A DNA stretch of 49,389 bases from an uncultured Spirochaetales bacterium (GTDB taxonomy: Bacteria > Spirochaetota > Spirochaetia > Sphaerochaetales > Sphaerochaetaceae), in assembly GCA_902803145.1 (NCBI GenBank), contig CADCOT010000010.1, positions 1 to 49,389 of the forward strand. The letters are read 5' to 3'. This document shows, in pieces, positions 13,319-41,263 of this stretch; position 1 is the stretch's first letter, and every line of letters starts with the position of its first letter. The notes under the pieces were generated by a model, which was given only the letters and a program-made list of their open reading frames with translations, searched no databases and was not told the origin of the DNA. Both the position numbers and the translations under genes were made by a program.

Positions 13319-13325
13319 TTAACCC

Positions 13326-19679: not shown

Positions 19680-21102
19680 AGTTCTTTCTAACTTTATCTG
19701 GAGACTCCTTGAACGCTTTGGAGCCCAAGGTGTGACATTTATTGTCTCACTTGTGCTTGCAAGACTTCTGGGCCCGGAAGTCTACGGTACTGTTGCGATT
19801 GTCCTTGTTTTTATTGCAATCTTTGATGTTTTTGTAGATAGCGGTTTAGGAAATGCTTTGATACAGAAAAAAGATGCAGATGATGTTGATTTCTCTTCTG
19901 TATTCTATTTCAACATTGCAGCATGCATTGTCCTGTACCTTATTGTCTTCCTTTTAGCCCCTGTGTTTGCCCTACTGTACAAAAATGACATGTTCGTCCC
20001 CGTGCTTAGGGTTATGGGACTTGAGTTGGTTATATCAGGTTTCAAGAATATCCAGTTTGCCTATGTTTCAAGGCATTTGGAGTTTAAAAAGTTCTTTTTT
20101 GCAACTCTGACCGGAACTATTATTGCTGCTCCTGTCGGAATAGTGATGGCACTAAGAGGCTACGGAGTTTGGGCAATTGTTGCTCAAAATCTGTCCAATA
20201 TTACAATAGACACCATCATCCTTTGGATTACCGTGAAATGGAGACCAAAAAAGACTTTTTCATGGGATAAACTCAAGGGTCTTCTCAGCTACGGATGGAA
20301 GTTACTGGCCTCATCTTTGCTTGAAACTGTCTATCAGAAACTGCGTCAGCTGATAATCGGCAGAAGATATTCAACAACAGATCTTGCCTATTACAACAAG
20401 GGAGAAACATTTCCCAATACAGCAGTTAACAATGTTAATTCCGCAATGAACAGCGTCTTGTTTCCTGTAATGTCTGAGAACCAGGACAACCCGGAAAACA
20501 TAAAAGCTATAACTAAAAAAGCAATCAGCATTGGCAGTTATGTGCTTATGCCTATGATGGCAGGTCTTGCAGCCTGTGCAGAGCCTCTTGTTCTGCTTAT
20601 GCTCGGAGAAGCATGGCTTCCATGTGTCCCTTATCTGCAAGTCTTCTGCTTTGTATATGCTTTTTATCCCTTTCATGTTGCAAATCTTAATGCAATCAAA
20701 GCAGTAGGAAGGAGCGACATATACCTCAAGCAAGAGATTGCAAAAAAGATAGTTGGAATCTTGGCCATAATAATTACAATGAGAATCAGTGTTTTTGCAA
20801 TTGCACTGGGTCTTGTTTTTACAGATTTGATTGACCAAGTTATTAACAGTTTTCCAAACGGAAAGCTGATTAACTACGCATACAAAGAACAGTTGGAAGA
20901 CTTGGCCGGACCTTTCTTCCTTTCAGTAATGATGGGAGGAATTGTTTATCTGATAAACTTTGTTCCTATCTCTTCGTTCTTGCAACTAATAATCCAAATA
21001 CCGCTTGGAATTGCCCTTTACGTAGCCCTCTCAAAGCTCTATAGATTGGATATATTTAAATATCTTATTTCTTCTGTTAGAATGCTCTTGAAGAGGCAAT
21101 AA
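19666..21102 (+). CDS. wzx: Wzx-type oligosaccharide flippase (MOP superfamily polysaccharide biosynthesis protein)
   Basis: 478 aa with about 12-14 TM helices. Typical N-terminus NFIWRLLERFG.QG..F...LVLARLL.P..YG. Confidence 0.85.
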   Translation: MSSSRVLSNFIWRLLERFGAQGVTFIVSLVLARLLGPEVYGTVAIVLVFIAIFDVFVDSGLGNALIQKKDADDVDFSSVFYFNIAACIVLYLIVFLLAPVFALLYKNDMFVPVLRVMGLELVISGFKNIQFAYVSRHLEFKKFFFATLTGTIIAAPVGIVMALRGYGVWAIVAQNLSNITIDTIILWITVKWRPKKTFSWDKLKGLLSYGWKLLASSLLETVYQKLRQLIIGRRYSTTDLAYYNKGETFPNTAVNNVNSAMNSVLFPVMSENQDNPENIKAITKKAISIGSYVLMPMMAGLAACAEPLVLLMLGEAWLPCVPYLQVFCFVYAFYPFHVANLNAIKAVGRSDIYLKQEIAKKIVGILAIIITMRISVFAIALGLVFTDLIDQVINSFPNGKLINYAYKEQLEDLAGPFFLSVMMGGIVYLINFVPISSFLQLIIQIPLGIALYVALSKLYRLDIFKYLISSVRMLLKRQ

Positions 21103-22198: not shown

Positions 22199-23410
22199 AT
22201 GAAGAAACTCCTTTTGCTTGGTGGCTCCAGATATCTGATTCCTGTTATTGACTGTGCAAAGAAATTGGGAGCATACACCATAACTTGCGACTATCTCCCT
22301 GACAACTATGCTCATAAATGTTCAGATGAATACTGCAACATCAGCATTATTGATAAAGAAGCTGTTTTAGAAAAAGCCAAATCTTTGAAGATAGACGGAA
22401 TAATGTCCTTCGGAACCGACCCCGGTGTTACCACTGCAAGTTACGTTGCCGAAAAGCTTGGTTTGCCAAACACCGGACCATATAAATCCGTATCAATCTT
22501 GCAGAACAAGGGCCTTTTCAGAAAATTCTTGCAGGAACACGGTTTCAACGTTCCAGTTTCCAAAAGTTACAGTTCTTCAGACACAGAAAAAGCAATTTCA
22601 GATTTCTCTCCGCTCCCCTTCCCTGTCATAGTAAAACCCACTGACAGCGCAGGTTCGAAAGGAGTTTCAAAAGTAACTGAATCAAATCAGTTAGGTAAAG
22701 CAATTAGTTTTGCCTTGGATAATTCTTTGTCAGGTCAGTTCATTGTTGAGCAGTATCTTGAACAAACAGGTTGTTCTTCTGACTCAGAATGCTTTTCAAT
22801 TGACGGAAAACTGGTTTTCTCTTCTTGGTCCAGTCAGTACTTTGACCACAGTGCATCAAACCCCTTTACGCCTACCGGTTTTACTTGGCCATCTACAATC
22901 TCTGAAAAGAACATTAAAGAACTTGAGTCTGAACTTGCAAGACTGATAAAACTTCTTGATATGGGGACAACAATCTACAACGTTGAAGCCAGAGAAACTA
23001 CAGACGGAAAGGCTTACCTTATGGAGGTGTCTCCCAGGGGCGGAGGAAACAGGCTTGCAGAAATGGTCAGATATTCAACAGGCGTAGACTTGATTGAAGC
23101 AAGTGTAAGAGCAGCCTTGGGACTTCCGTTGAATGAGGTAAAACAGAAAGAGCCTGAAGACGGATGGGTAGAACTTGTTCTTCACAGTGAATCAGATGGC
23201 CATTTCAAAGGTCTTGAAGTAAACCCGGCAGTAGAAGAATTTGTTGTAGAAAAAGACCTTTGGGTTAAAACCGGCGATATTGTTGAAGGCCTTACTGGAG
23301 CAAACAAATCAATTGGAACCCTCATCCTTAAAACAAAAAATGAGAGGCAGTCCCGTGAAATACTGAACTGCCCCGAAAAGTTTGTGAGAGTTATTACTTC
23401 CCCCAACTGA
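22199..23410 (+). CDS. ATP-grasp domain protein (putative amide ligase)
   Basis: ATP-grasp signatures FPVIVKPTDSAGSKGV, EQYLE, and NVEARE...YLMEVSPRGGGN. Starts 2 nt after the aminotransferase stop. Confidence 0.8.
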   Translation: MKKLLLLGGSRYLIPVIDCAKKLGAYTITCDYLPDNYAHKCSDEYCNISIIDKEAVLEKAKSLKIDGIMSFGTDPGVTTASYVAEKLGLPNTGPYKSVSILQNKGLFRKFLQEHGFNVPVSKSYSSSDTEKAISDFSPLPFPVIVKPTDSAGSKGVSKVTESNQLGKAISFALDNSLSGQFIVEQYLEQTGCSSDSECFSIDGKLVFSSWSSQYFDHSASNPFTPTGFTWPSTISEKNIKELESELARLIKLLDMGTTIYNVEARETTDGKAYLMEVSPRGGGNRLAEMVRYSTGVDLIEASVRAALGLPLNEVKQKEPEDGWVELVLHSESDGHFKGLEVNPAVEEFVVEKDLWVKTGDIVEGLTGANKSIGTLILKTKNERQSREILNCPEKFVRVITSPN

Positions 23411-25163
23411 AGAATGAAAGCGGACTGAACTTGAAAGCAATCTGAGCCTGAACATCAGATGAACCTACTCCGCTTTGGAATTTGTAATTGAAGTAGTGCT
23501 GGAATGCAATTCCGCCGCTTATTTCAAGAACTCCGTCAAACAGGTCTGCAGTATCAGAAACAGCTATTCTAATCAGATGCTGGGGAACATTGCCCTCATT
23601 GTAACAGTGTGGAGACGGGAGTCCGTGAATACCTATGCCGTACGGTGCCATATCTCCATGGTAATCACCTTCAACAAACAGACCCTTATCACCATTTGCC
23701 TTGTAAAGAATATCAAGCCTTACAGTGTTGTTCTTTGAAACCAGTTCACCTCCAACTGCTACTGCAACAGTATTAGGTCCGAACTTGTAACCAAGATAGG
23801 ATACATCCTCACCTGAACACCACATCTGATAGTTTCCGGTTACAAGATCTACTTTGTAGTACTCAGGATTATCTTCATAATCCCCTCCCTTTTCCGGTTT
23901 CAGATACATGCCGGGACTTGTATATGCAAGTTCAGCATAGGTGTTGAGTTTGTATTCTTTAATTCGAGTTGAGTTTTTGACATTCAGCAGGAATCCGTAA
24001 ATGTTAGGACTGCCTTTTGTCTGTTCATCTGACTGCTGAATCTGATCAAACATACCCTGGAAATTCAAACTCCAACCCGGAAGGAATGCATAATCAATAT
24101 CAAATCCGAACCAGTTGTTTGTGTTATATCTGAACGAAATCCAGTTATGCATAAGAGAGAACGGATTGAAAATCTGAGGATCAAACGGAGAAGCCGTAGT
24201 GTAATCAAGAATTGCTTCATAAAGTCCAAAATTCACCTTGTCAAAAAGGTTGAATGTAGCTTTGTGTATTACAACAATCGGTCTTTCTTTGTTTAACTGA
24301 GGGGTCAGGTTAAAATCTTTTACAGCAGATTCTGTCTCTGAATTTCCATCTACTATATCACCTTCGTGGCTGAATGTATTAATCAGCATCTCATATGTGA
24401 AAGGATATGAGTTAACACTCAGTTTAAAAGTTTCCCTATACATGAAGTTATCACCTATGGAGAGATTTCCTGTAACTCCACTTCCTGATGAAACCCTCAT
24501 TCTTCCCACAGCAATACCAAATAACCCTGTTCCTCCGGCAAGATATGTATTCCACGGCCAGGTCTGATTTTCTTCATGAGAAAAAGGTCTGTCAAAGGTA
24601 ATATAAGGCACGTTATGTGAGAAATAATTACGGTGATAAGCTCTGAGGATTCTTGATAATTCGTACTCAAAATGTCCGAATATATAATCAGTCATTCTAA
24701 GATTTACACCGGCATAAACAGCAGGTTTTATCTCGTTGTAAGGAACAACCCAATCACGTCTGGGACCGTCCTGGACAACACCTTCCTCATCTTTATCATA
24801 TTCTTCTTCAAGCTGCGAATTGTAGAAAAACTCCGGAGTCAGTGCCACTTTCAATGAAGCAGAAAAATCATCAGAAATCTTCAGCCCAAGATTCTCACCT
24901 TTGAACTCTTTAATTAAATCCTCAAGTTCCTTTTGACCGTCTTCTGACAGTTTATCTTCAAGGTTTGTCTTTTCTATAACTCTTACAAGCATATCTCCGC
25001 TTGCAGGATAAATAAGGCCGGGCATTGTCATGCCGGCTTCTCTGAAAAGTGAATCAAGAGCCTTCACTTCTTTTGATGTCTGATTATAAAGCTGCTGAGT
25101 AGCAAATACTGAAGCCAAAACCAGACAGAAAACAATTGCAGTCAACAATACTCTCTTTTTCAT
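23394..25163 (-). CDS. Signal-peptide outer-membrane protein, possibly Wzi-like (second copy, divergent)
   Basis: Signal peptide MKKRVLLTAIVFCLVLASVFA. N-terminal EVKALDSLFREAGMTMP helix motif and GRMRVSSGSGVTGNLSIGDN are analogous to the Wzi-like motifs in the 625-aa protein. Apparently monocistronic. Confidence 0.4.
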   Translation of the reverse strand: MKKRVLLTAIVFCLVLASVFATQQLYNQTSKEVKALDSLFREAGMTMPGLIYPASGDMLVRVIEKTNLEDKLSEDGQKELEDLIKEFKGENLGLKISDDFSASLKVALTPEFFYNSQLEEEYDKDEEGVVQDGPRRDWVVPYNEIKPAVYAGVNLRMTDYIFGHFEYELSRILRAYHRNYFSHNVPYITFDRPFSHEENQTWPWNTYLAGGTGLFGIAVGRMRVSSGSGVTGNLSIGDNFMYRETFKLSVNSYPFTYEMLINTFSHEGDIVDGNSETESAVKDFNLTPQLNKERPIVVIHKATFNLFDKVNFGLYEAILDYTTASPFDPQIFNPFSLMHNWISFRYNTNNWFGFDIDYAFLPGWSLNFQGMFDQIQQSDEQTKGSPNIYGFLLNVKNSTRIKEYKLNTYAELAYTSPGMYLKPEKGGDYEDNPEYYKVDLVTGNYQMWCSGEDVSYLGYKFGPNTVAVAVGGELVSKNNTVRLDILYKANGDKGLFVEGDYHGDMAPYGIGIHGLPSPHCYNEGNVPQHLIRIAVSDTADLFDGVLEISGGIAFQHYFNYKFQSGVGSSDVQAQIAFKFSPLSFFSWGK

Positions 25164-27334: not shown

Positions 27335-28357
27335 TTATATTATCTTCTTTCCAAGAAGCATTTCCATTTTTTCTTTCAAACAGAAAAACATCAAATGGTG
27401 ATAACTCTTTTTTATTAATAGACATGCAGCCTTCTCTGTTTCTGAAAGCTTTCCGTGATACCCTTTGCGGGCGATAAACTCCCTTACGAACTTAGCATCA
27501 GAGTACTCATCCAACCATTTTTTCTTTTGGGAAAACGGAATACGGAAAAACAAAACTCGCATAATATCCATATTCAGCCAATATTCCATATATTTTCTGA
27601 AATCCTCAAAATCTTCATCGTTAAAGAATCCATTGTTCTTCAAAAAATCTAACACCAGCTCTTCTTTTTCATATGTGACAATGCCGGGATGGTATTCTTT
27701 ATGAGAAGTGATGCTTCTAGGATTGAAACGGTAGTTATAAAGAATATCGGGAATAACAACCGCTCGGTTGGAATACTGTATTATTTCCAGCGTTTGTACC
27801 TGATCTTCCCCTTTTGAAATATGAAAGTAAGGAGAAAAATCCACTCTTCCTAGGTTCTCACGCTTCGCAGCCTTTCTACATAAACTGTTCAAATTGCCAT
27901 TAAGAAAAACAAGTCTTGAAAAAGAACGTTTATCATCTATTACGACTGCAGAATCATCAGGAGAATTGGTAGAATCTATAACTTTTCCTTCTGACACTCG
28001 TCTTAAACCATAGATTACACAATCTGCATCATATTTTTTGGATGCTTCACGTATTCTTTCCAAGGTGTTAGGTTCCAACCAGTCATCGGAATCAAGATGA
28101 ACAATCCAATCCCCTTCCGCTTTTTTCAGAGCAAAGCGTCTGGTTGCAAAAAGCCCTTCGTTTGGCTTATGGAAAACTTTTATGAAAGGATATTCAGATG
28201 CATACCTATCACAAATAGAGGCACTTGAATCTGTAGATCCATCGTCAACAAGGATTAATTCGTAGTCTTTAACTGTCTGATTTAATACAGACCGGACACA
28301 ATCTTCAAGATATTTCTCTACATTATATACAGGACAGAGAATACTGAATTCAGGCAT
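27335..28357 (-). CDS. Glycosyltransferase family 2
   Basis: FSILCPVYNVEKYL...ILVDDGSTD...DSDDW motifs. Its stop codon abuts the stop of the convergent GT2 gene. Confidence 0.88.
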   Translation of the reverse strand: MPEFSILCPVYNVEKYLEDCVRSVLNQTVKDYELILVDDGSTDSSASICDRYASEYPFIKVFHKPNEGLFATRRFALKKAEGDWIVHLDSDDWLEPNTLERIREASKKYDADCVIYGLRRVSEGKVIDSTNSPDDSAVVIDDKRSFSRLVFLNGNLNSLCRKAAKRENLGRVDFSPYFHISKGEDQVQTLEIIQYSNRAVVIPDILYNYRFNPRSITSHKEYHPGIVTYEKEELVLDFLKNNGFFNDEDFEDFRKYMEYWLNMDIMRVLFFRIPFSQKKKWLDEYSDAKFVREFIARKGYHGKLSETEKAACLLIKKSYHHLMFFCLKEKMEMLLGKKII

Positions 28358-29543
28358 TATCCCTCATACCAACCAAAGCAACATATGAATTAAGTATGAT
28401 GATTGAAGGCACTTTGTCATAGTAAGAAACATTTGTCATCTCACTGATAAGAAGAACTATATTCAGAGCCAAAGCCAAATAGAAACAATTGTCCAGTTTC
28501 TTCTTAGCCAATCCTATTACAGAGCCCGTCAGATTAAGCGCATAATAGAGAATAAAACCTACAGCACCTCCGCAAGCAAGAAGCTCAGCATAGTTGTTAT
28601 GAAGATAGTAGTTAATCTCATAGAATTGCCCGGCAATTGAATGGGTTCCACCCATTCCTACACCAAGCACGGGATGCTCTTTAAAGATACTGAGTCCAAG
28701 CTTGATAAGACCGATTCTGATTTCACTTGATCCGTCCCCGCTATTTGATAAGGTTGCCAATGCTTCTTCCATTCTTCCCATGATAGGAGCAAGGAACGGA
28801 AGATTCCTCATTAGGTACAAAGCCGCTACCAAGGCAACAACAACACCCACAGCAATCAGCTTTCTCCACCCGCGTGCACGAAGGAAAACAAGAATAAACA
28901 AACCGGCAAAGAAGCAGATAAACCCTTCCCTGCTACCTGTTGCAAGAATTGCACTTAATCCGAACAGAAGAATTGGAATAGTCCAATATTTTTTCTCAAA
29001 TATCAGATAGTACATTCCGACTATCATAGACATGGCAATACTGAAACTCATTCCATTTTGGTCATTAATGTCAGCACCAATTCTGCTTCCTGTTAGAATT
29101 GAATCAATTATTTCTTTATGGCCGTAGTAGAGGTAGTAGAAACAGGCATAAAACACACCGGCCACAAAGACTGCATTGACAATCAACATACGCTTCTTTT
29201 CTGAAGCACAATAGTTGTACAAGAGGACTGCCAGGACAAAAAGTCTGAATACGGTCTTTGCTCTCATCATTGCCATATCGTGGTCTATTGCCCAAGTGGT
29301 TGAAAGAAAACAGAAAGCCGAGAATGCTGCATATAGAACTGAGAACGTTGATATCACATGTGAATGTTCGATAATTCCATAAATTAACAGCAGACCCATT
29401 AGGATTACAGCAACAAAGTTTGCATAACGCTCCGTTGCAAGTGCTGCATTTGAAAAGATAAAAAATACAGTGAAGTAAATATAGACGAACGGATCTATTA
29501 CCTTGGTCAGTTGTTCTTTTTTTGAAGAAAGACTATTAATCAT
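28350..29543 (-). CDS. O-antigen ligase / Wzy-like polymerase family membrane protein
   Basis: About 10-12 TM helices. GSREGFI and G.G.GG....HNNYAELLACGGAVGF match the O-antigen ligase (Wzy_C) domain pattern. The track start at 29567 is TTG. ATG 29543 is preferred. Confidence 0.8.
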   Translation of the reverse strand: MINSLSSKKEQLTKVIDPFVYIYFTVFFIFSNAALATERYANFVAVILMGLLLIYGIIEHSHVISTFSVLYAAFSAFCFLSTTWAIDHDMAMMRAKTVFRLFVLAVLLYNYCASEKKRMLIVNAVFVAGVFYACFYYLYYGHKEIIDSILTGSRIGADINDQNGMSFSIAMSMIVGMYYLIFEKKYWTIPILLFGLSAILATGSREGFICFFAGLFILVFLRARGWRKLIAVGVVVALVAALYLMRNLPFLAPIMGRMEEALATLSNSGDGSSEIRIGLIKLGLSIFKEHPVLGVGMGGTHSIAGQFYEINYYLHNNYAELLACGGAVGFILYYALNLTGSVIGLAKKKLDNCFYLALALNIVLLISEMTNVSYYDKVPSIIILNSYVALVGMRDNA

Positions 29544-29563
29544 TTCCCTTGTTCCTTTCCCAA

Positions 29564-31651
29564 TCAATAAAGCCAGTTAATTCCAAGAAAGATTTCATAC
29601 TCAAGACGTACATCCTCTCCCCTGAGTTTTGCAAATAATGTATCTGCATTGAAACCAAGTGAGAACCTGAACGGATATGCAGGATGCGAATCAAGTATTG
29701 CAATTCCCTCAACACCTACACTGTGAAGATAATTAACCTTAGATTTGTCTATAAACATGACAAAATCATAGAACGGATTTATGTAAGTATGCCCCATGTC
29801 CTCAAAGTTAAACAGAGCAGTTGTTAAATTAACGTTTCCGGCAATGACTGCCTTTGCAGGGAAACCTCCGGAACTGATAGCAGGGCTTTCATCAAGAATA
29901 CCTCTGAGAAGAGTTCCAAGACCTCCCTTATCAAAGTTAAACTCGTTGTAAGTAAATGAGTTGTAAGAGTAGAAATAGTCACTATCTGCCTGCGAATTCA
30001 ACTTATAAGGATCACTGGAAGATGTTTTGTCAAACCACAACCCTGAGTCACCGGATTTAGCCATTGCCAAAAGCCTGATTGAAGGATTGAAGAAGGCATT
30101 CTTCAACGGGAATGCAGTAATACTGCCTCTTAAGAAAAGTTGCGGTTTGAAACTGAATGCAAAACGTCCGGCCAACTGCAGATTGTACTTGATTCCGTGT
30201 CTGAAATTGTCCCTAAATGCAAAGAAATCCTCTCCGGAATCTATTCTGTTTATCTCTCCACCTGCCAGACCTGCAGAGAATGCAAGTTCAAGGTAAGGAG
30301 AATATTTGAATTTGTTCTCATTGCGTATAAAAGTGTTGTACAAGGTAACAATCGGAGAAACGTTCAGTTTGCCGTTTAAGAAGCCAAATGACTTTTCTAC
30401 CCTGAAATCAAAATCAAATCTGTAGAGATTTTTGTCATCATTACGCCATGTTTTGAAAATTACAGAGTCTGTGTAGTCATCAAGCATGTTGAATGAGAAA
30501 CTGGAATTTGTCTTTACGTAGTTATATTTTTCAACAGATGTCTTAGTTCTGTAGATTTCCCAGTAAACGTTGTTACTCAGCTTTTTCCCTGTAATATTCC
30601 CATCAGGCATGGCCACTGTAACAGTATTGTCCAATGAATAAAATCTTGAAGCTATCATGCTGTTCTGTGCAGGCTGAAATGTAAATACCGGAGTCTCAGA
30701 AACAGAAAAACCTCCAACCTTTATGTCAGAAACACTGAAGGTGAATTTATGGTATGAATCACTGCTCACAAACGGTGAAGGAAGAATCGGATAGTAAAGT
30801 CCGTTATATGTAGCTGACAGCTTTGCTGATCCCAGAGCCATATCAACATAACCGACATCAAGTGCCCATTTGTTTATTACAGGCTTGGCTGTAGGTTTGT
30901 AGTCAATTTCAAATCCTACGTTTACTTTACCGGGTCCTGCCTGCAGGCCTTTCTCTGCAATTTTGAATACATATGCAGATTTGGTTTTATCTCCGTAGTA
31001 ATAGAGAAGATTCAGAGATGTTGTAATCTCTGCAGTACCTATTTTCCATCCTGTTTCATCAAGAACAAGTTTCAGAAATGAGGTTTCCGTATTCAGAAGA
31101 TCAATATCACCTGACAACTCAGCAGAAAGTTTCAGATCATTAATCTTTATTCCTGAAATTGGGATACTGAACTTATAATCACCGTATTTGAATGATTTCT
31201 CCTGCTGAACACCGTCTATGGAGATGTCCATTGTGGCCATCAAGCCAAAGAGGTTTTTCTCTTTGAATCTGATTCCGAATACAAATCCGTTGTTAGAGTC
31301 ATACTTCGGGTACGGGAAGATGATAGTTGAATCTGCATCCTCCACGTAAACTTCAATAGTTACGCTGTAGTCCTCATCAACAGAAGAAGTAATTGAGTAA
31401 TTAACAGAAGAAACATTGAAGAGGTTTGTATTCCACAGGGCTGTACCTTTACGTTTTACCGCTGCTTCCAAAGCCTCAAGACTATCAAACTTTTCCTCTG
31501 TATGCGGATTAACAAGGTAATCAATGGCCTGTTCTGTAGTCTTGCCAAGAACTGTATACTTGTACCCTATTACAGTGTATGTTCCTGCATACAATCCAAA
31601 AACACATATTACAATCAGCACTAATGCTGCTATTATTTTCTTTGAAAACAC
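29564..31651 (-). CDS. Omp85-superfamily-like outer-membrane protein with one POTRA-like domain
   Basis: GTG start and signal/anchor sequence MFSKKIIAALVLIVICVFGLYA. POTRA-like YKYTVLGKTTEQAIDYL....FDSLEALEAAVKRKGTALWNTNLF....YSVTIEVYVED. GGLGTLLRGIL resembles the Omp85 loop-6 (V/L)RG(F/Y) lid-lock motif. C-terminal LGINWLY looks like a beta-signal. Assigned by eye. Confidence 0.5.
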   Translation of the reverse strand: MFSKKIIAALVLIVICVFGLYAGTYTVIGYKYTVLGKTTEQAIDYLVNPHTEEKFDSLEALEAAVKRKGTALWNTNLFNVSSVNYSITSSVDEDYSVTIEVYVEDADSTIIFPYPKYDSNNGFVFGIRFKEKNLFGLMATMDISIDGVQQEKSFKYGDYKFSIPISGIKINDLKLSAELSGDIDLLNTETSFLKLVLDETGWKIGTAEITTSLNLLYYYGDKTKSAYVFKIAEKGLQAGPGKVNVGFEIDYKPTAKPVINKWALDVGYVDMALGSAKLSATYNGLYYPILPSPFVSSDSYHKFTFSVSDIKVGGFSVSETPVFTFQPAQNSMIASRFYSLDNTVTVAMPDGNITGKKLSNNVYWEIYRTKTSVEKYNYVKTNSSFSFNMLDDYTDSVIFKTWRNDDKNLYRFDFDFRVEKSFGFLNGKLNVSPIVTLYNTFIRNENKFKYSPYLELAFSAGLAGGEINRIDSGEDFFAFRDNFRHGIKYNLQLAGRFAFSFKPQLFLRGSITAFPLKNAFFNPSIRLLAMAKSGDSGLWFDKTSSSDPYKLNSQADSDYFYSYNSFTYNEFNFDKGGLGTLLRGILDESPAISSGGFPAKAVIAGNVNLTTALFNFEDMGHTYINPFYDFVMFIDKSKVNYLHSVGVEGIAILDSHPAYPFRFSLGFNADTLFAKLRGEDVRLEYEIFLGINWLY

Positions 31652-31691
31652 AATTCTATCCCTACTATAACTATAACTGAAATTATACTTC

Positions 31692-31720
31692 TTGACAAAT
31701 AGATTGAGACAGGCTAACTT
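31692..31720 (+). promoter_or_regulatory. Sigma70-like promoter for the mgtE leader
   Basis: TTGACA (31692-31697), 17 nt, TAACTT (31715-31720). Confidence 0.5.
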
Positions 31721-31833: not shown

Positions 31834-33210
31834 ATGGCAGAACGCAATATCGTAACAGTAGAAGAGACACTCAAGATTCTTTTGGAAGGCAGAAAGTATG
31901 CATCTGTCAAGGATATTCTTACTACAATGAACCCTTCCGACATTGCAGCTATTTTTGATGACCTTGATGAGCAGCACCTGCCCATGCTTTTCCGTCTGCT
32001 TCCCAAGGATCTGGCCGCAGAAACATTTGTTGAGATGGAACCTGACAATCAGGAACTCCTGATTCAGAGTTTTTCAGATACAGAGCTTAAAGCCGTTATC
32101 AACGAACTGTATGTTGATGATGCGGTAGACCTTGTTGAAGAAATGCCCGCCAACGTTGTAAGAAGAATCCTTGCACAGGCCGCGCCGTCAATGAGGCGCG
32201 ATATCAACCAGATACTCCACTATCCTGAAGACAGTGCAGGCTCTGTCATGACCACTGAGTATGTATGGCTCAAAGCTGACATGACAGTAGAACAGGCCAT
32301 CAAGCATATCAGAACAACCGGTGTAGACAAGGAAACAATTTATACCTGCTATGTTACAGAGCGCAGAAAACTTGTCGGCTTGTGTTCAATTAAAGATCTG
32401 CTTCTTGCAAAAGACGACAACATGCTTGTTTCCAGCATAATGGAGACCAACTTTATCAGCGTAACCACACATACCGACCAGGAAGAAGTAGCTCAGATGT
32501 TCAGTAAGTACAACCTGCTGGCCTTGCCTGTAGTAGATTCCGAAGGACGAATGGTAGGTATCATTACTGTTGACGACGCTATGGACGTCATGCAGGAAGA
32601 GGTTACCGAAGATATGGAAATCATGGCAGGTATGACACCTTCAGATAAAACCTATCTGCGTTCAACCCCCATTGATCTTTTCATACACAGAATCCCGTGG
32701 CTTCTCATTTTGATGATAAGTGCAACATTCACTGGCCTGATTATTACCGGCTTTGAAACAGCCCTTTCCAGACTTGTTGTTCTTACAGCATTCATTCCTA
32801 TGCTGATGGATACAGGCGGAAACTCCGGTTCTCAAAGCTCTGTAACAGTAATCAGAGCCCTCAGCCTTGGTGAAGTTGAGTTTGAAGACATTGGAAAAGT
32901 CCTTATTAAAGAACTGTGCACAGCCGTGCTCTGCGGAATATCTCTTGCCGTTGTCTGCTTTGGAAAAGTAATGCTTGTAGACAGAATTCTGCTTTCCAAC
33001 CCGGATGTAACAGTAAGAGTTGCCCTTGTTGTATGCGCAACAATGGCCCTGACAGTTATAGTTGCAAAGGGCATAGGATGCTCACTGCCCATCATAGCCA
33101 AAAAGCTTGGTTTTGACCCTGCAGTTATGGCAAGTCCGTTCATTACAACTATCGTCGATGCACTGTCACTGCTTATTTATTTCACTATCACCAAAGCAGT
33201 TCTGATGTGA
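31834..33210 (+). CDS. mgtE: Magnesium transporter MgtE
   Basis: MgtE N-domain, tandem CBS region, and TM domain with the DTGGNSGSQS motif. Confidence 0.93.
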   Translation: MAERNIVTVEETLKILLEGRKYASVKDILTTMNPSDIAAIFDDLDEQHLPMLFRLLPKDLAAETFVEMEPDNQELLIQSFSDTELKAVINELYVDDAVDLVEEMPANVVRRILAQAAPSMRRDINQILHYPEDSAGSVMTTEYVWLKADMTVEQAIKHIRTTGVDKETIYTCYVTERRKLVGLCSIKDLLLAKDDNMLVSSIMETNFISVTTHTDQEEVAQMFSKYNLLALPVVDSEGRMVGIITVDDAMDVMQEEVTEDMEIMAGMTPSDKTYLRSTPIDLFIHRIPWLLILMISATFTGLIITGFETALSRLVVLTAFIPMLMDTGGNSGSQSSVTVIRALSLGEVEFEDIGKVLIKELCTAVLCGISLAVVCFGKVMLVDRILLSNPDVTVRVALVVCATMALTVIVAKGIGCSLPIIAKKLGFDPAVMASPFITTIVDALSLLIYFTITKAVLM

Positions 33211-34730
33211 TCTGCACAGTTGATTCCGTCAACTGCTGCACTGACAATTCCCCCTGCATAACCTGCACCCTCTCCGCAAGGGTACAGACATTTATGACTT
33301 ACACTTTCAAAGGTTTCAGGATTTCTGATAATCCTCACCGGTGAACTGGTTCTGGTTTCAGTTCCTATAATCAGCGCCTCTTCTGTAACAAAGCCATGGG
33401 CCTTTCTTCCCATCTGTTCAAAGCCCTGTTTAAGTGCATCTGAAACATCCCGGGGAAGAACTGTTCTCATATTTGCGCTTGTCAGTCCCGGAGCATAGCT
33501 GGAAACAGGAAGAGATGTACTGACCTTTCCTCTCAGAAAATCAGTTAGCCTTTGTGCCGGTGCCTTCTGTGTGCAGGATGCTGCACTATATGCCATTCTC
33601 TCAAGTTCCGCCTGATATTCCATCACTTTAAGCGGATCAGTTGTGGCCAAATCTTCGCTATTAATCTGGGTAACTATTCCGCTGTTGGCCCACCTTGAGC
33701 CGCGGTTTGACGGACTCATTCCGTTTACAACCACCTGCTCTTTATCTGAAGCGGCAGGAACTACAAAACCGCCCGGGCACATACAGAATGAGTAAACTCC
33801 TCTTCCGTTGACCTGCTCTACAAAACTGTACTCAGCCGCAGGAAGATAAGAAGGTCTTTGTCTGTTAAGATGGTACTGAATGCTGTCAATTATCTGCTGA
33901 GGGTGTTCAAGCCTTACGCCTACTGCAATGCTTTTTGCTTCAATCCCAACACCGCGCCTTTGAAGCATTCTGAATGTATCTCTGGCCGCGTTTCCTATAG
34001 CAAGAACAACAGGGCCATTGAAGGTTTTTTCATTTCCTTCATTGTCTTTGCAAACAACCCCTTTGACATCATTGTTTTCTATAATCAAATCCGTTACGCA
34101 TGTGTCTAGATGGAACTCTCCTCCATGCTCAAGAATGCAGTTGCGCATTCGTTCAATTATTGTCGGAAGGACCTCGGTTCCTATGTGCGGATGTGCTTCA
34201 TAAAGGATTTCCGGCTTTGCTCCGAACTGAACAAACAGATTCAGAACTTTCTCATTTTCACCCCGTTTCTTGCTTCTTGTGTACAGTTTTCCATCGGAGA
34301 AAGTACCGGCTCCACCTTCTCCAAAGCTGTAGTTTGACGCAGGATTAACAAGACCTTCTCTGGATATGAGTGCAATGTCTGCCTTTCTTTTATGAACATC
34401 GGATCCTCGTTCAATTACAACAGGCTTTATCCCGTATTCAAGAAGCCTCAGTGCAACAAAAAGACCGCCGGGTCCGCTACCTACCACCACGGCCTGGCCT
34501 TTGGCCGGGTCTGCATCTTTGAATTCTGTGGGAACAAAAAGCTCGTTTAGGGGATTGATGCGACAAAGCAAATTGAACTTGATATCCTGGCGTCTGGCAT
34601 CAATACTCTTTCTGAGAATTATGTATTTCTGTTGCTCCCCGATACGCAGGGTTTTTCTGATTGCTCTGTCAGCTTTTTCTTCAGTGGCAAACTCGTTGGC
34701 AGGCAAAACAATTTGGATGTCTTTCTGCAT
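33177..34730 (-). CDS. NAD(P)/FAD-dependent oxidoreductase (COG2509-like FAD-dependent protein)
   Basis: Dinucleotide-binding motif VVVGSGPGGLFVALRL at about residue 80 and 517-aa architecture typical of this family. It overlaps the mgtE 3' end by 34 nt. Confidence 0.8.
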   Translation of the reverse strand: MQKDIQIVLPANEFATEEKADRAIRKTLRIGEQQKYIILRKSIDARRQDIKFNLLCRINPLNELFVPTEFKDADPAKGQAVVVGSGPGGLFVALRLLEYGIKPVVIERGSDVHKRKADIALISREGLVNPASNYSFGEGGAGTFSDGKLYTRSKKRGENEKVLNLFVQFGAKPEILYEAHPHIGTEVLPTIIERMRNCILEHGGEFHLDTCVTDLIIENNDVKGVVCKDNEGNEKTFNGPVVLAIGNAARDTFRMLQRRGVGIEAKSIAVGVRLEHPQQIIDSIQYHLNRQRPSYLPAAEYSFVEQVNGRGVYSFCMCPGGFVVPAASDKEQVVVNGMSPSNRGSRWANSGIVTQINSEDLATTDPLKVMEYQAELERMAYSAASCTQKAPAQRLTDFLRGKVSTSLPVSSYAPGLTSANMRTVLPRDVSDALKQGFEQMGRKAHGFVTEEALIIGTETRTSSPVRIIRNPETFESVSHKCLYPCGEGAGYAGGIVSAAVDGINCADHIRTALVIVK

Positions 34731-34733
34731 AAA

Positions 34734-35819
34734 TCAGCTTTCCCTGTATTTCTGATACAGTTTTGTGTATTGATCAGCAATAACTGAAACATCATACTGC
34801 CCTACACGCTCAAAGGCCTTCTCACAGAATTCTTTGCGCATTTCGGAATCTGAAAGAGCTTTTTCCATAGCATCACGCAGTGCCTGAACATCTCCTTTCG
34901 GGGTAAGAAGTGAACATCCGTCCACAATATCCCTGATCCCGCCAACATCTGTGGAAACTACAAGCAGCTTTGAAGCCATAGCTTCAAGTAAAACAAGCGG
35001 AAGACCCTCATATTCAGAACTGAGTAAAAAGGCATCTGCCTTAGCCATGTAGGAATGAACATTATCAACAGCACCCACAAGCTGAACTTTTTCCTTAAGA
35101 GAATTTTTGTTTATAAAGTCTTCCAAGGTTTCTCTTTCAGGGCCATCTCCCAGTAAAAGAAGTCTGACATCAGGGTGGTTTTTCTGAAGATCATTGAAAG
35201 CTTTAAGTCCAAGAATCTGATTCTTTTCCTTTGAAAGCCTTCCTGCCATGATGAATGTAAAATTGTCATGTTTTATCTTTTTTTCAGATGAAAACTTGCC
35301 AACATCTACAGGGTTGAAAATCAATTCAACATTCTTTTTTACTTTGTATTCTTTACGAACAAGACTTCTGATTGTCTCTGTTATTGCAACAGGAACAGCT
35401 TTTCCTCTTTTGTACAAAGCAGAAAAAACCATCCTTTTAGCTTTTTCAAACTCAAGAGTAGGAACACTATGAACGGTCTGAATCATCATTTTCCTTCTGT
35501 GGGTGAGGATCCACAAAGATGAATAAAAACCGCCTGCAAGGTGAGAATGAACAATATCAGGTTTGAAACGTGACAGTTCTTTTCCAAGTTTGAAGAATGC
35601 AGAAAACGAGAACCCGGGTTTCTTGTGCATATACCTGATAGGAACACCATGGTCCTCAACATCATGCTCAAGATGATTGTCCAACCTATCGCCGGAAATA
35701 CAAATTACCTCAACATCAAGTTGAGAGAGGTCTAAATGAGAAACAAGGCGCGAGACCATGGTCTCGGCGCCACCCATTCTAAAATCAGGAAGAACTACAG
35801 CTACTCTGGTCTTCTGCAT
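34734..35819 (-). CDS. Glycosyltransferase family 4 (GT-B fold)
   Basis: GGAETMV N-terminal motif and FLLSSEYEGLPLVLLEAMAS motif. ATG 35819 (MQKTRVAVVLP) is preferred over the track start at 35867, which overlaps the upstream gene. Confidence 0.85.
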   Translation of the reverse strand: MQKTRVAVVLPDFRMGGAETMVSRLVSHLDLSQLDVEVICISGDRLDNHLEHDVEDHGVPIRYMHKKPGFSFSAFFKLGKELSRFKPDIVHSHLAGGFYSSLWILTHRRKMMIQTVHSVPTLEFEKAKRMVFSALYKRGKAVPVAITETIRSLVRKEYKVKKNVELIFNPVDVGKFSSEKKIKHDNFTFIMAGRLSKEKNQILGLKAFNDLQKNHPDVRLLLLGDGPERETLEDFINKNSLKEKVQLVGAVDNVHSYMAKADAFLLSSEYEGLPLVLLEAMASKLLVVSTDVGGIRDIVDGCSLLTPKGDVQALRDAMEKALSDSEMRKEFCEKAFERVGQYDVSVIADQYTKLYQKYRES

Positions 35820-35835
35820 ATCAATAGATATTATA

Positions 35836-37092
35836 TCAGAATTTTTCCCTGTTAATCCAAAGTCCAAGAGCCGGATTCGGAATGTAGTAGATTACCTCTC
35901 CGTCAGGCATTGTATTGTAGCCGTAGGAAAGCTTTTCCGGATTGTAACGCTTTGCCATTTCATCGTAGTCCGCAGCTTTAAATCCTACACTCTCAATCTC
36001 TTTCTTGGATATGTTCTTAACCGCATAGGTAATTGAGAAACGGCCGTCAGAAGAACCGTGAATCAGGTGGGCTGCAACACCCATGTTGTCACGAAGGTCC
36101 TGATTCTCAGGAGCTTTGAACAGCTCAAGGGTGTGAAGTCTGCCATGGTAGCCGTACTTGCGGATAAGGGCATCGTTAATCGGGTCTTCACCAAAGTGCT
36201 CAACGCCGGGAGCAAGAATGATAAGTTCTCCACCGTCTGCAATGGCCATACGGGTTCTGTAGACAGCCTTGTTGCCAAGCCATGTGCTCTTAAATTCTCT
36301 ATCGTTAAGGTAGACAACGCACTTCTTGATTCCGTGGTCAACAAAGTCAATGTTCTTTTCCTGGCTCAAAGCAACGGCATCTTCAAGGCACTTTCTTGTG
36401 TTGCCAATGAAGACACCGTGGGTCTGAATCTTGTCATTAGGAGCTGTACATACAGTAAGAATGAACCATATGGGACGCTCTGAAAGGAAGGTCTTGAGTG
36501 CATAATCAAAAACAAGACGCACAGGAGTGAAATCCTTACCCATCATGCGTTCCATGCCGTAAACGGCACCGACCATATGGCTCTTGTTGATCATATCGGC
36601 ACCACCGGCGCCTACAAAGAGATTCTTTGCGTGGTTGGCCATACCAATGACTTCGTGGGGAACAACCTGACCGATTGAGACTACAAGGTCATAAGAAGGA
36701 TCCATGACAAGGCGGTTGACCTGGACATCAATGCTGTCCTTCCACAGACCTTCAGTTATTTCAGAAAGATAGCTGCCCGGGACCTCTCCCAAAGTTACTA
36801 CGTCCTTACGCCAGTTGTGACCTATGAAACGATCATGGGGAATGTCTCCGTACATGTCTGAAATCTGGGAATCTGTCATTGGAACATGGGTTCCCAGAGC
36901 TTCCAGAAGATCACAGCCAATTCCTTTTTCATCAAGGTAGTGATACATGATGTTTGCAATAAGCCCGGCGTTTGAAAAGCATCTGGTAAAGTCAGGAACT
37001 ATCAAAAGAACCTTTTTCAGCTTACCTTTTGCCAGTCTTTCATCAAGGAACGATACTACTTTCTCTTTAATCTGAAGGTCTGTCATTGCCAT
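35836..37092 (-). CDS. LarA-like (lactate racemase N-terminal domain / DUF2088 family) protein, putative 2-hydroxy-acid or sugar-acid racemase/epimerase
   Basis: By-eye alignment to LarA from memory. LLIVPDFTRC vs VIISSDHTRP; LGTHVPMT vs TGFHRPST; VVPHEV...HAKN...INKSHM vs ESHFF..GGRKS..MANHS; GGELIILAPGVEHFGED vs GGTIIMVAGARDGHGGE. TAATG overlap with the gnd stop. Confidence 0.55.
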   Translation of the reverse strand: MAMTDLQIKEKVVSFLDERLAKGKLKKVLLIVPDFTRCFSNAGLIANIMYHYLDEKGIGCDLLEALGTHVPMTDSQISDMYGDIPHDRFIGHNWRKDVVTLGEVPGSYLSEITEGLWKDSIDVQVNRLVMDPSYDLVVSIGQVVPHEVIGMANHAKNLFVGAGGADMINKSHMVGAVYGMERMMGKDFTPVRLVFDYALKTFLSERPIWFILTVCTAPNDKIQTHGVFIGNTRKCLEDAVALSQEKNIDFVDHGIKKCVVYLNDREFKSTWLGNKAVYRTRMAIADGGELIILAPGVEHFGEDPINDALIRKYGYHGRLHTLELFKAPENQDLRDNMGVAAHLIHGSSDGRFSITYAVKNISKKEIESVGFKAADYDEMAKRYNPEKLSYGYNTMPDGEVIYYIPNPALGLWINREKF

Positions 37093-38543
37093 TATGCGTT
37101 GTAGGTTGAAGCGCTTGTGCTTCCGCCTTCTCCTGTCCAGTTGGTATGGAAGAACTGACCGCGCGGAAGATCCACACGCTCATAGGTATGTGCTCCGAAG
37201 TAGTCTCTCTGTGCCTGAAGCAGGTTTGCAGGAAGACGCTCGGATGTGTAACCGTCAAAGTAGCTGAGAGCACTTGCAAATGCAGGTACGGGTACTCCGC
37301 TCAGAACTGCCTGGGCAACAACCTTTCTCCAAGACGGAACAAGTGAGTCAATTGTTGCTGAGAAGTAGTTGTCAAGCAGGAGGTTGGAAAGCTCGGGGTT
37401 AATGTCATAGGCTTCCTTGATCTTGCCAAGGAAAACGCTGCGGATAATACAACCGCCCCTCCACATGAGGGCGATTCCGCCGTAGTTGAGATTCCATCCG
37501 TATGTCTTTGCAGCAGTTCTCATAAGGGTGTAGCCCTGTGCATAAGAAATAATCTTTGAAGCATAAAGAGCGCGTCTGATGTCTTCAATGAACTCTTTCT
37601 TGTCGCCCTTGAACTGGGCTGCGTGCTTGTCTGTGAACTTCTTTGAAGCAAGAACTCTGTCTTCCTTCATTGCTGACAGACAGCGGCTGAAAACGCTTTC
37701 ACCAATCAGTGTAAGAGGAACACCTTCATCAAGTGCGGCAATTCCTGTCCACTTTCCTGTACCCTTCTGACCTGCTGTATCAAGAATCTTATCAACAAGA
37801 GGCTGGCCGTCTCTGTCTTTGAAGGAAAGGATATCTCTTGTAATTTCAATCAGATAGCTGTCAAGCTCTGTCTTGTTCCACTCGGCAAAGACTTCGTGCA
37901 TTTCATCTGCGCTCATGCCAAGAACATCCTTCATCAGGCTGTAAGCTTCACAGATAAGCTGCATGTCACCGTACTCAATTCCGTTGTGAACCATCTTTAC
38001 AAAGTGACCGGCACCGTTTTCACCAACCCAGTCACAGCACGGAGCTCCGTCTGCCTTTGCAGAAATTGACTGGAAGATAGGCTTAATGTACTGCCATGCT
38101 TCAGGGCTTCCGCCGGGCATGAGGGACGGTCCCTTAAGGGCACCCTCTTCTCCGCCTGAAACGCCTGTTCCAACATAGAGAAGACCTTTTTCTTCAACAT
38201 ACTTACAGCGTCTGATTGTATCAGGGAAGTGGCTGTTTCCGCCGTCAATGATAATATCGCCCGGCTCAAGAACTTCAAGAAGTTGGTCAATAAGGCTGTC
38301 AACTGCGCTTCCGGCCTTAACCATCATCATTACCTTTCTGGGTTTCTCAAGGTTTGAAGCAAGCTGCTTGAGAGTATGGCATCCGACAATGTTCTTGCCT
38401 TTTGCACGGCCGTTTACAAAGTTGTCAACTTTCTCAGTTGTGCGGTTGTAAACTGCGACTGTGAAGCCCTTAGACTCCATGTTCATTACAAGGTTCTCGC
38501 CCATTACGGCAAGTCCGATAAGTCCGATATCTGCTTTCTTCAT
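37092..38543 (-). CDS. gnd: 6-phosphogluconate dehydrogenase (decarboxylating)
   Basis: GLIGLAVMGENLVMN Rossmann N-terminus and full-length Gnd similarity (about 480 aa). ATG 38543 with SD GAGGTG is preferred over the GTG at 38552. Confidence 0.93.
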   Translation of the reverse strand: MKKADIGLIGLAVMGENLVMNMESKGFTVAVYNRTTEKVDNFVNGRAKGKNIVGCHTLKQLASNLEKPRKVMMMVKAGSAVDSLIDQLLEVLEPGDIIIDGGNSHFPDTIRRCKYVEEKGLLYVGTGVSGGEEGALKGPSLMPGGSPEAWQYIKPIFQSISAKADGAPCCDWVGENGAGHFVKMVHNGIEYGDMQLICEAYSLMKDVLGMSADEMHEVFAEWNKTELDSYLIEITRDILSFKDRDGQPLVDKILDTAGQKGTGKWTGIAALDEGVPLTLIGESVFSRCLSAMKEDRVLASKKFTDKHAAQFKGDKKEFIEDIRRALYASKIISYAQGYTLMRTAAKTYGWNLNYGGIALMWRGGCIIRSVFLGKIKEAYDINPELSNLLLDNYFSATIDSLVPSWRKVVAQAVLSGVPVPAFASALSYFDGYTSERLPANLLQAQRDYFGAHTYERVDLPRGQFFHTNWTGEGGSTSASTYNA

Positions 38544-38548
38544 ATTAA

Positions 38549-39625
38549 TCACCTCTTAACTCTTGCATTACCAGAGTAAATTGCCCACACCTGATCCTCA
38601 TCTGCAGGTGTGCCATAGTCATCATATACTGTTGTGGCAAGTACACCGGTTGCCCATGCAAACTGTATCCACTTGTCCTGCTCCCATCCGCGGAGAATAG
38701 CATAAAGAAGACCTGCTACAAAGCCGTCTCCGCCGCCGATTCTGTCAAGAACCTGGATTTCTCTGGGCTCTTCAACATACCACTTGTCTCCGACAAGAAC
38801 CAAAGCTCCCCACATGTGCTGGTTTGCATTCAGAACCTGTCTGAGTGTTGTTGCATAGACCTGTGCGTGGGGGAACTGCTTTCTGACTTCAAGAACCATA
38901 CCCTTGAATGCGTCAATCTTGGAAGCAATATCCTTTCCGCCTGCCTCAGGACCCTTGACGCCAAGAGCAAGCTGGAAGTCCTCTTCGTTACCAATCAGAA
39001 TGTCTGCATAGGATGCAATTTCTGTGAAGCTGGCTCTCAGTTCTTCTTCTCTGCCCTTCCAGAATGATGCTCTGAAGTTGAGGTCAAAGCTGATGAGAGT
39101 TCCGTGCTTCTTTGCTGCACGTGCAAGATCCAGACAGAACTGTGTTGTGTCTGCACTCATAGATGCAATAAGGCCGCTCAGATGGAGAATTCCGACTCCT
39201 TCCTTGCCAAAGATGCGTTCTGTGTCAAAGTCTTTGACGTTGAGGAAACGACCAACCTCACCGGCTCTGTCGTTCCATACTCTGGGTCCGCGCAGACCGT
39301 AACCGGAATCTGCAATATTGAACTGGTGTCTTACTCCCCACGGACCATCCTGCTTTACTTCGGGTCCTTCGTAATCAATATTTCTGAATCTGAGTTCACT
39401 CTTAATGAAATCAGCAATCGGAGAACCTGCTACAAAGGCTGTGAGGACCTTTGTCTTCAGTCCGAGTGCAGCGCTGACGTTAAGAACGTTGCTTTCTGCA
39501 CTTGTAGCCTGCATCTGATACATGCGGCTTGTGTGAACCGGCAGTCTGTCGGCCGGTGTAATTCTTACGCCCATACTTGTCGGACAGACAAGATGGTAAA
39601 GGCAGTTTTCCTTGACTTTAAGCAT
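38549..39625 (-). CDS. PfkB-family sugar kinase (2-dehydro-3-deoxygluconokinase-like)
   Basis: PfkB signature DRIGGGDGFVAGLLYA near the C-terminus and KdgK-like length. SD AAGGAG. Confidence 0.8.
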   Translation of the reverse strand: MLKVKENCLYHLVCPTSMGVRITPADRLPVHTSRMYQMQATSAESNVLNVSAALGLKTKVLTAFVAGSPIADFIKSELRFRNIDYEGPEVKQDGPWGVRHQFNIADSGYGLRGPRVWNDRAGEVGRFLNVKDFDTERIFGKEGVGILHLSGLIASMSADTTQFCLDLARAAKKHGTLISFDLNFRASFWKGREEELRASFTEIASYADILIGNEEDFQLALGVKGPEAGGKDIASKIDAFKGMVLEVRKQFPHAQVYATTLRQVLNANQHMWGALVLVGDKWYVEEPREIQVLDRIGGGDGFVAGLLYAILRGWEQDKWIQFAWATGVLATTVYDDYGTPADEDQVWAIYSGNARVKR

Positions 39626-39635
39626 TTATTTCTCC

Positions 39636-41234: not shown

Positions 41235-41263
41235 TGTAAATCCTCCGTGTACCAAAAGACGTT

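Follow-up and report, generated by a model that had tools for sequence, protein, structure and literature searches.

Proteins of the Omp85 superfamily are, to our knowledge, seen as machines that handle proteins exclusively and whose barrel always has 16 strands. Two reports describe spirochaetes as carrying additional Omp85 paralogues, other than BamA, in putative export gene clusters (PMC13078400, PMC11358297). The nearest of these atypical proteins are BBJ25 of Borrelia, whose gene is described as clustered with those for a LolA-like protein and an ABC transporter of MacB type and not with glycan genes (PMC13078400), and the noNterm paralogues of Leptospira, a class named for its absent N-terminal domains (PMC11358297). 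Here we analyse a 49,389-nt stretch of DNA from an uncultured Spirochaetales bacterium (contig CADCOT010000010.1 of assembly GCA_902803145.1; hereafter the window) and, within it, a gene at the edge of a glycan locus that encodes a protein of 695 amino acids (aa) very probably derived from Omp85. As described, BBJ25 and the noNterm paralogues would both differ from the family of this protein. Full-text literature searches found no paper on the family or on polysaccharide loci that contain an Omp85 protein, and, as a preliminary description of this DNA had suggested, an Omp85-type protein with a genetic tie to polysaccharide synthesis seems not to have been described.

Evidence for Omp85 ancestry of the 695-aa protein

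We consider it very probable that the 695-aa protein is an Omp85-derived outer-membrane β-barrel that carries a signal peptide and a single periplasmic POTRA domain, that its barrel has kept the first strands, the RG lock, the FxD motif and the last five strands of Omp85, and that hairpins inserted into the middle of it account for the predicted total of 28 strands. The family profile, the structural model and the motifs together argue that it is a divergent descendant of the superfamily. The gene lies on the minus strand at 29564-31651 (positions are those of the window throughout) and has a GTG start. Judged by sequence comparison it is a genuine gene, because it has 14 full-length homologues of 49-87% identity and nearly equal length; these close relatives, together with two shorter ones, come from Spirochaetales metagenome bins. 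The protein itself gave no useful match in Pfam, NCBIfam or PDB sequences (phmmer included), and neither PF01103 (Omp85) nor PF03865 (ShlB) matched it even at E 10. For the family, no Omp85 model of Pfam or NCBIfam reaches threshold, Pfam holds no model of its own, and a precomputed Pfam domain was found in none of the 120 relatives listed. The members that we looked up are annotated by NCBI as 'hypothetical protein', and a relative from Treponema lecithinolyticum is labelled 'OMP85 family' and 'OMA87' (UniProt and IMG). An exhaustive profile search returned 539 cluster representatives at E ≤0.001, mostly of 430-640 aa, with conservation concentrated in the first ~150 and last ~120 residues, and the family appears to be restricted to Spirochaetota.

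Our main structural model was built with AlphaFold2 (AF2) from an alignment of 137 sequences (mean predicted local distance difference test score 94.8, predicted template modelling score 0.85) and supersedes an earlier run from only 16 close homologues, for which the latter score was 0.57. It consists of a signal helix, one POTRA and 28 β-strands. The signal peptide (aa 1-22, MFSKKIIAALVLIVICVFGLYA followed by G; 31586-31651, minus strand) is recognizable in the sequence and corresponds to a helix at residues 3-20 of the model. The POTRA (aa 23-106; 31334-31585, minus strand) has a β-α-α-β-β order in both AF2 models (β 24-35, α 40-47, α 58-73, β 78-91 and β 94-105 by DSSP), so that structure prediction reproduces both the signal sequence and the single POTRA-like unit that had been proposed in the preliminary description. 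PF07244 (POTRA) matches relatives at E values down to 6e-6, and the family profile matches the POTRA structure of Anabaena Omp85 (Alr2269; 3mc8) at E 0.42. The predicted β-barrel region, with its 28 strands, occupies aa 109-691 (29579-31327, minus strand). When the model was compared with the PDB using Foldseek, the top ~47 matches were nearly all BamA, TamA or FhaC, at E values down to 3.6e-7.

The motifs of the barrel, all encoded on the minus strand, fall where an Omp85 ancestry would place them. PYPKYDSN (aa 113-120; 31292-31315), in strands 1-2, belongs to the most conserved motif of the family and aligns to β1 of BamA. The counterpart of Omp85 loop 6 is a 68-residue loop (aa 533-600; 29852-30055) between the 23rd and 24th predicted strands that contains LRGI (aa 582-585; 29897-29908) and is followed by five strands. 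F627-Y-D629 (29765-29773), the likely counterpart of the β13 FxDxG of Omp85, lies on the second of these five strands, as in β12-16 of BamA, and the final G of this motif is replaced by V or A in the family. R583, G584 and D629 are, with G486, invariant in the 137-sequence alignment, and at least 90% of these relatives also keep P113, G122, N133, G136, R484, N606, F627, G646, E648, G666 and E686. The earlier identification of GGLGTLLRG (aa 576-584) as the loop-6 counterpart of (V/I)RG(F/Y) is supported, R583 and G584 are both invariant, and the aromatic C-terminus that had been reported, LGINWLY, is present. The distance from R583 to D629 is 46 aa, compared with 44 in TamA, and that from D629 to the C-terminus is 66 aa, compared with 70 in BamA. 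The RG loop is preceded by 23 predicted strands as against 11 in BamA; a single continuous meander calls for just such an odd number before the loop and an even number overall.

The links to Omp85 that can be drawn from sequence are weak yet mutually consistent. Relatives match the BamA model TIGR03303 at E 7e-7 and 1.7e-6 over POTRA5 and the first barrel strands, below threshold (28 bits for the best relative, with a cut-off of 297 bits), and other sub-threshold matches in relatives are to TamL, POTRA and ShlB (best E for ShlB 0.009). In hhalign, family positions 25-177 align with residues 344-484 of Escherichia coli BamA (POTRA5 and β1-3; E 6e-4), covering the POTRA and placing PYPKYDSNxGF...NFxG on β1-β2 and the NWLGTG turn. 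PFxD...RxSxG is placed on SFFWDMG...RMSAG of BamA (736-742), a weak match to a single BamA sequence (E 0.0065), and no alignment to TamA was obtained beyond the POTRA. These comparisons set the family profile against single E. coli sequences, because a search with the BamA barrel gave only homologues of at least 88% identity among the 120 listed, and they are of low power.

The preliminary description had named beforehand a 16-stranded barrel and a POTRA domain as the marks of an Omp85 structure; the POTRA is present, and the barrel of the model has 28 strands instead. The assignment to Omp85 thus holds in the sense of a divergent relative, as the motifs and Foldseek matches suggest, and not in that of a regular BamA, TamA or TpsB, given the 28 predicted strands and the absence of any Pfam or NCBIfam model at threshold. 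When the predicted strands are mapped onto the alignment by length, a series read from one model and an alignment, members shorter than 480 aa would keep about 16 strands (~12 fewer), the common 480-539-aa forms of Treponema ~18, and only members of at least 660 aa all 28, with the insertions lying between strands 5 and 19. Because the shortest members would keep about 16 strands, the ancestral barrel may have been canonical. Short members include EPF27540.1 of T. socranskii and ERJ94500.1 of T. lecithinolyticum, both of 511 aa.

Linkage to surface-glycan loci

The Omp85-like family shows a conserved linkage to loci for surface glycans. In a scan limited to one genome for each species we found 181 relatives, the best 80 of which belong to Treponema (T. 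socranskii, T. lecithinolyticum and T. ruminis among them), Sphaerochaetaceae, Pleomorphochaeta, Oceanispirochaeta and other spirochaete bins, with a few from bins named as other phyla. We annotated 78 distinct species-level loci using the window's own proteins as seeds, and near genes (n=386) were compared with far genes, more than six positions away (n=203). An initiating phosphoglycosyl transferase (PGT) of the Bac_transf family is the adjoining upstream gene, in the same orientation, in 26 of the 78 loci, and it lies at most three genes away in 36 and at most six genes away in 42, as against 13 and 10 loci for the two Wzi-like seeds, and it is absent from the far genes (0/203; Fisher p = 2e-7). 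Taken as one set, PGT, DUF6675 and Wzi-like genes account for 79 of the 386 near genes and for 2 of the 203 far genes (p = 1e-13). Clades differ in how the partners are arranged, with the PGT gene preceding the Omp85-like gene in Treponema, and the Omp85-like gene preceding either PGT and then DUF6675, or a Wzi-like gene, DUF6675 and a second Wzi-like gene, in Sphaerochaetaceae-type loci; this variation argues for a linkage that has been maintained and not for one frozen arrangement. Upstream neighbours not labelled by the seeds include Rml/epimerase (11), GT4 (6) and Wzy_C (2) genes. LicD, sugar-binding proteins, PAP2 and EpsG are the families seen most often among 126 further unlabelled genes from module-type loci, and Poly_export/Wzz is not among the top-25 families, the list that was inspected.

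The preliminary description had drawn the connection to polysaccharide genes through the genes directly downstream, and its account of three minus-strand genes, with their coordinates, spacings and family identities, was reproduced in full. The 695-aa gene is the first gene of the unit and is followed by genes for a polytopic membrane protein of the Wzy_C (O-antigen polymerase/ligase) family (28350-29567; PF04932, E 7e-16), whose sole solved relative is the WaaL ligase 7tpg (E 3e-4), and a 340-aa GT2 glycosyltransferase (27335-28357; Glycos_transf_2, E 4e-36). A TTG at 29567-29565, from which the Wzy_C protein would have 405 aa, overlaps the TGA stop of the 695-aa gene (29566-29564) by 4 nt, and an ATG at 29543-29541, 20 nt downstream of that stop, would give 397 aa; the ATG is the start chosen in the gene call of the 87%-identical relative and is likely to be the start here. 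The Wzy_C and GT2 genes share 8 nt (28350-28357), and a consensus-type scan of the region found no convincing terminator between the three genes. This close spacing and the lack of a terminator fit a single transcription unit, as far as can be read from the DNA. A promoter-like site, TTGTCA-17-TATAGT (31670-31698, minus strand), which is a consensus match at 10 of 12 positions and the best of its kind in the region, lies directly upstream of the GTG in the 182-nt spacer shared with the divergent mgtE gene; such sites are no commoner in the region than in shuffled sequence.

In close relatives the 695-aa gene always adjoins mgtE at the edge of a glycan locus, and it is the next gene that varies. 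Wzy_C and GT2 follow in the relative of 87% identity (L001), GT2 in that of 62% (L002, which has an EpsG-type polymerase elsewhere) and a Caps_synth-type glycosyltransferase in those of 59%, 50% and 49% (L003-L005, L009). The pairing with the ligase-like gene therefore holds for the window and its closest relative and is not conserved beyond them; a phmmer search with the window's Wzy seed found no Wzy near the relatives, a weak negative, as Wzy is too divergent for a single-sequence seed. What replaces the adjacency to Wzy as the link to polysaccharide genes is the set of phylum-wide partners, the Bac_transf PGT, DUF6675 and Wzi-like genes.

These recurring partners are all present in the window's own locus, a Wzx/Wzy-type glycan locus of roughly 21 kb (~10058 to 31651) that contains DUF6675, Bac_transf, MBOAT and a partner of unknown family, several GT2 and GT4 glycosyltransferases, Wzx, a DegT aminotransferase, an ATP-grasp protein and Wzy_C, together with three large secreted proteins without a family (695, 625 and 589 aa). 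The PGT, the most constant partner elsewhere (10860-12263, minus strand), the secreted DUF6675 protein (10058-10870, minus strand) and the Wzx-type flippase (Polysacc_synt_3; 19666-21102, plus strand) were assigned by library matches. The 589-aa protein (23394-25163, minus strand) and the 625-aa protein (15641-17518, minus strand) are paralogous to each other and have no family match of their own. Seven of their 36 relatives match PF14052 (best E 1e-7) and their family profile matches Wzi (2ynk) at E 0.065, and by these profile comparisons they are distant relatives of the capsule-assembly lectin Wzi and belong to a divergent Wzi-like family. No Poly_export or Wzz was found among the window genes scanned.

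Several further features of these loci were observed. The DUF6675 gene overlaps the end of the Bac_transf gene by 11 nt, and the PGT and DUF6675 pair recurs in this order in many Spirochaetota loci; we found no mention of DUF6675 in a full-text literature search. An MBOAT acyltransferase gene is followed by one for a 338-aa protein that has a single membrane helix, at its N-terminus, and belongs to no family (12302-14714, minus strand), and the two look like a glycan O-acylation pair (AlgI/DltB-like plus partner). Profile searches found no solved relatives of DUF6675 or of the 338-aa protein. Just outside the glycan locus, at 8748-9980 (minus strand), lies a gene for a 410-aa protein with a signal peptide, no family and a faint match to TP0733-type outer-membrane barrels (E 0.06). 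Beside mgtE is a conserved sugar-acid block (33177-41255) of genes for a FAD-dependent protein, a GT4, a LarA-family nickel-dependent hexonate epimerase (NF052594, E 2e-183), gnd, a PfkB kinase and, at 39636-41255, a mannitol dehydrogenase assigned solely from its counterpart in L001. The block also flanks the locus in the relatives L001 and L012. Its FAD-dependent gene and mgtE are convergent and share 34 nt at the 3' end of mgtE. Tandem duplicates of the Omp85-like gene occur in L030 (5675-10037) and L072 (9560-12502), and in L030 a small PGT of 201 aa lies between the copies, which encode 593 and 616 aa. In long-form relatives outside glycan loci (L007 7576-10028; L012 9989-12526; L014 1649-4321) a NUDIX hydrolase is the immediate neighbour, in both orientations, with LptF and LptG just upstream in L007 and a Cas9 gene 3 kb downstream in L012. 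Five contigs with the spirochaete-type module (L017, L019, L021, L027, L063) come from bins named Clostridium, Muribaculaceae, Lachnospiraceae, Faecalibacterium and Bacilli, and are probably mis-binned and not cases of horizontal transfer.

Possible roles at the outer membrane

We suggest that the 695-aa protein probably belongs, in function, to a Wzx/Wzy-type surface-glycan pathway specific to Spirochaetota, the conserved parts of which would be the initiating PGT, the 695-aa protein, one or two Wzi-like outer-membrane proteins and DUF6675. Its part in that pathway can be proposed only tentatively. The best explanation overall, which we favour while granting that it may well prove wrong, is that it is an Omp85-derived outer-membrane component of the pathway, possibly serving an export or insertion step. 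It is conceivable, and somewhat less secure again, that the protein itself performs the outer-membrane step. In that case the POTRA would dock a periplasmic partner or the cargo, the widened barrel, possibly by way of an Omp85-type seam of first and last strands, would pass the finished glycan or lipid-linked glycan to the surface, and the Wzi-like proteins would retain or organize the glycan there. A more far-reaching proposal, which we regard as doubtful, is that spirochaetes turned the Omp85 insertase scaffold into an outer-membrane translocon or insertase for Wzx/Wzy-made surface or lipid-anchored glycans, replacing Wza/Wzc, as the barrel was enlarged stepwise from ~16 to 28 strands by hairpin insertion.

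Several points weigh against a role in moving glycan. The proposed function is read solely from gene neighbourhood and predicted structure, and we know of no characterized Omp85 protein that handles glycans; all handle proteins. The model reaches a TM-score of at most 0.29 to every solved barrel in Foldseek, and that its 28 predicted strands close one barrel with an open lumen is a supposition. No Wza or Wzc was seen, in a search that covered the local loci and, for the related loci, the top-25 list of families. About a third of the relatives are not beside glycan genes, among them L012-L014, in which the Omp85-like gene lies between mgtE and NUDIX, WYL, toxin/defence or Cas9 genes, and L007/L011, in which it lies between LptF-LptG-TGT-NUDIX and RNase H. 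In the clade of the window, mgtE anchors the gene at the edge of a variable locus, so its position there may be partly historical.

The main rival explanation is that the protein is a dedicated insertase, a BamA/TamA-like paralogue that folds the outer-membrane proteins of the locus (the two Wzi-like barrels and perhaps others) and never touches glycan. This would agree with the general knowledge that characterized Omp85 proteins act on proteins, with the retention of the POTRA, RG lock, apparent FxD and strand-1 region, and with the frequent presence of Wzi-like genes directly downstream (L016, L018, L025, L027, L051, L059, L077, L087). However, the most constant neighbour is an inner-membrane PGT (42/78 loci) and not the Wzi-like genes (13 and 10), an insertase role leaves the enlargement to 28 predicted strands unexplained, and where BamA is present, 18-stranded barrels do not normally call for an insertase of their own; we think this rival rather unlikely. 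A weaker rival, to which we give still less credence, is an Omp85-derived outer-membrane protein of general role (a porin, a membrane-biogenesis factor or a lipid-transport partner) whose proximity to glycan genes reflects hitch-hiking at the border of a recombination hot-spot. The fixed position of the gene beside mgtE in the window clade while adjoining glycan genes vary, the NUDIX, defence or Cas9 genes at the same site in L012-L014, and the housekeeping context of L007/L011, with LptF and LptG two genes upstream, would all be expected if this were so, but the strong enrichment of PGT, DUF6675 and Wzi-like genes in different gene orders in Treponema, Sphaerochaetaceae and Pleomorphochaeta, and the frequency of same-strand pairs of a PGT gene followed by the Omp85-like gene, would not. 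A TpsB- or TamA-type transporter for a specific secreted protein, as might be suggested by the presence of FhaC and TamA among the Foldseek matches and by a weak ShlB Pfam match in one relative (E 0.009), is rejected as highly improbable because of the domain count (one POTRA, compared with two in TpsB and three in TamA, and no N-terminal plug helix after the signal peptide in the model) and the missing partners, no large TpsA-like or TamB/AsmA-like gene recurring beside the family in the loci and neighbour scans.

If the family does act as a glycan translocon, it would be without precedent among Omp85 relatives, both in carrying a cargo that is not protein and in having a barrel of other than 16 strands. 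As we read it, the family presents a new architecture (one POTRA with an expanded predicted barrel), a statistically solid new genomic association and, potentially, a new class of cargo. The current view of Omp85 would be challenged on two counts, namely by a phylum-wide, unnamed family embedded in glycan loci and by a catalytic lid-lock that has been kept while the barrel has apparently expanded. The family is also a concrete candidate for the means by which surface glycans or glycolipids are placed on the outer membrane in Treponema and related spirochaetes, whose loci show no Wza/Wzc-type exporter (local loci and top-25 list). We also note that the family includes the oral species T. socranskii and T. 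lecithinolyticum, and a surface-exposed, conserved barrel in oral Treponema may therefore also attract interest as an antigen or marker. Should the protein prove to be only a private insertase, PGT, Omp85-like, Wzi-like and DUF6675 genes would still constitute a new conserved module worth annotating.

Comparison with described outer-membrane systems

The closest structural likeness of the 695-aa protein is to BamA and TamA (5d0o, 4c00), which are the best Foldseek matches of its model. It shares with them a signal peptide, a β-α-α-β-β POTRA, a C-terminal membrane barrel, a loop-6 RG motif (FDKGGLGTLLRGI in the 695-aa protein, FYAGGSSTVRGF in BamA and FFAGGDRSIRGY in TamA) and an apparent FxD on the second strand after the RG loop, and with BamA an aromatic C-terminal strand (YEIxIGxGxxY in the family, FQFNIGKTW in BamA). 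Unlike these proteins, it has one POTRA and not five or three, 28 predicted strands and not 16, and a TM-score to them of at most 0.29, and its gene resides in glycan loci with no BamB-E or TamB genes nearby. We rejected its identity as BamA on the number of POTRAs and on the score of the best relative against TIGR03303 (28 bits, cut-off 297 bits), and as TamA on the number of POTRAs and the lack of an adjacent tamB (AsmA-like) gene in the window and related loci.

TpsB proteins are a case of an Omp85 barrel that serves as a translocation pore and not as an insertase. The family resembles the TpsB protein FhaC (4qky) in its short RG-to-D spacing, and FhaC is among the Foldseek matches, whereas the two POTRAs, the plug helix at the N-terminus and the neighbouring TpsA cargo gene of TpsB proteins have no counterpart in it, on which grounds identity as TpsB (type Vb) was rejected.

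Wza, an octameric α-helical channel that works with Wzc, bears no relation in sequence or fold to the 695-aa protein, and identity as an OPX/Wza protein was rejected, there being no match to Poly_export (PF02563) or SLBB in the protein or the neighbours scanned. In PgaA, BcsC, AlgE, GfcD/Wzp-type porins and LptD, a monomeric barrel with a periplasmic docking domain passes glycan; LptD (5iv9) has a very large barrel of 26 strands and releases glycolipid through the seam between the first and last strands. These conduits differ from the 695-aa protein in having TPR or β-jellyroll periplasmic domains and not a POTRA, and in lacking the RG/FxD lock, and no homology to any of them was detected. LptD is among the weaker Foldseek matches, below those to Omp85 and with a TM-score of about 0.2, and identity as LptD, which has an OstA β-jellyroll at its N-terminus and an LptE plug, was rejected, the N-terminal domain being a POTRA. 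A functional analogy to these conduits, drawn from the shared combination of barrel and docking domain, is possible. The arrangement of the loci follows that of enterobacterial K-loci, in which variable glycosyltransferase, wzx and wzy genes lie between an initiating transferase and conserved genes for outer-membrane proteins, and the spirochaete loci share with Wzx/Wzy capsule systems the presence of proteins that resemble the Wzi lectin (2ynk).

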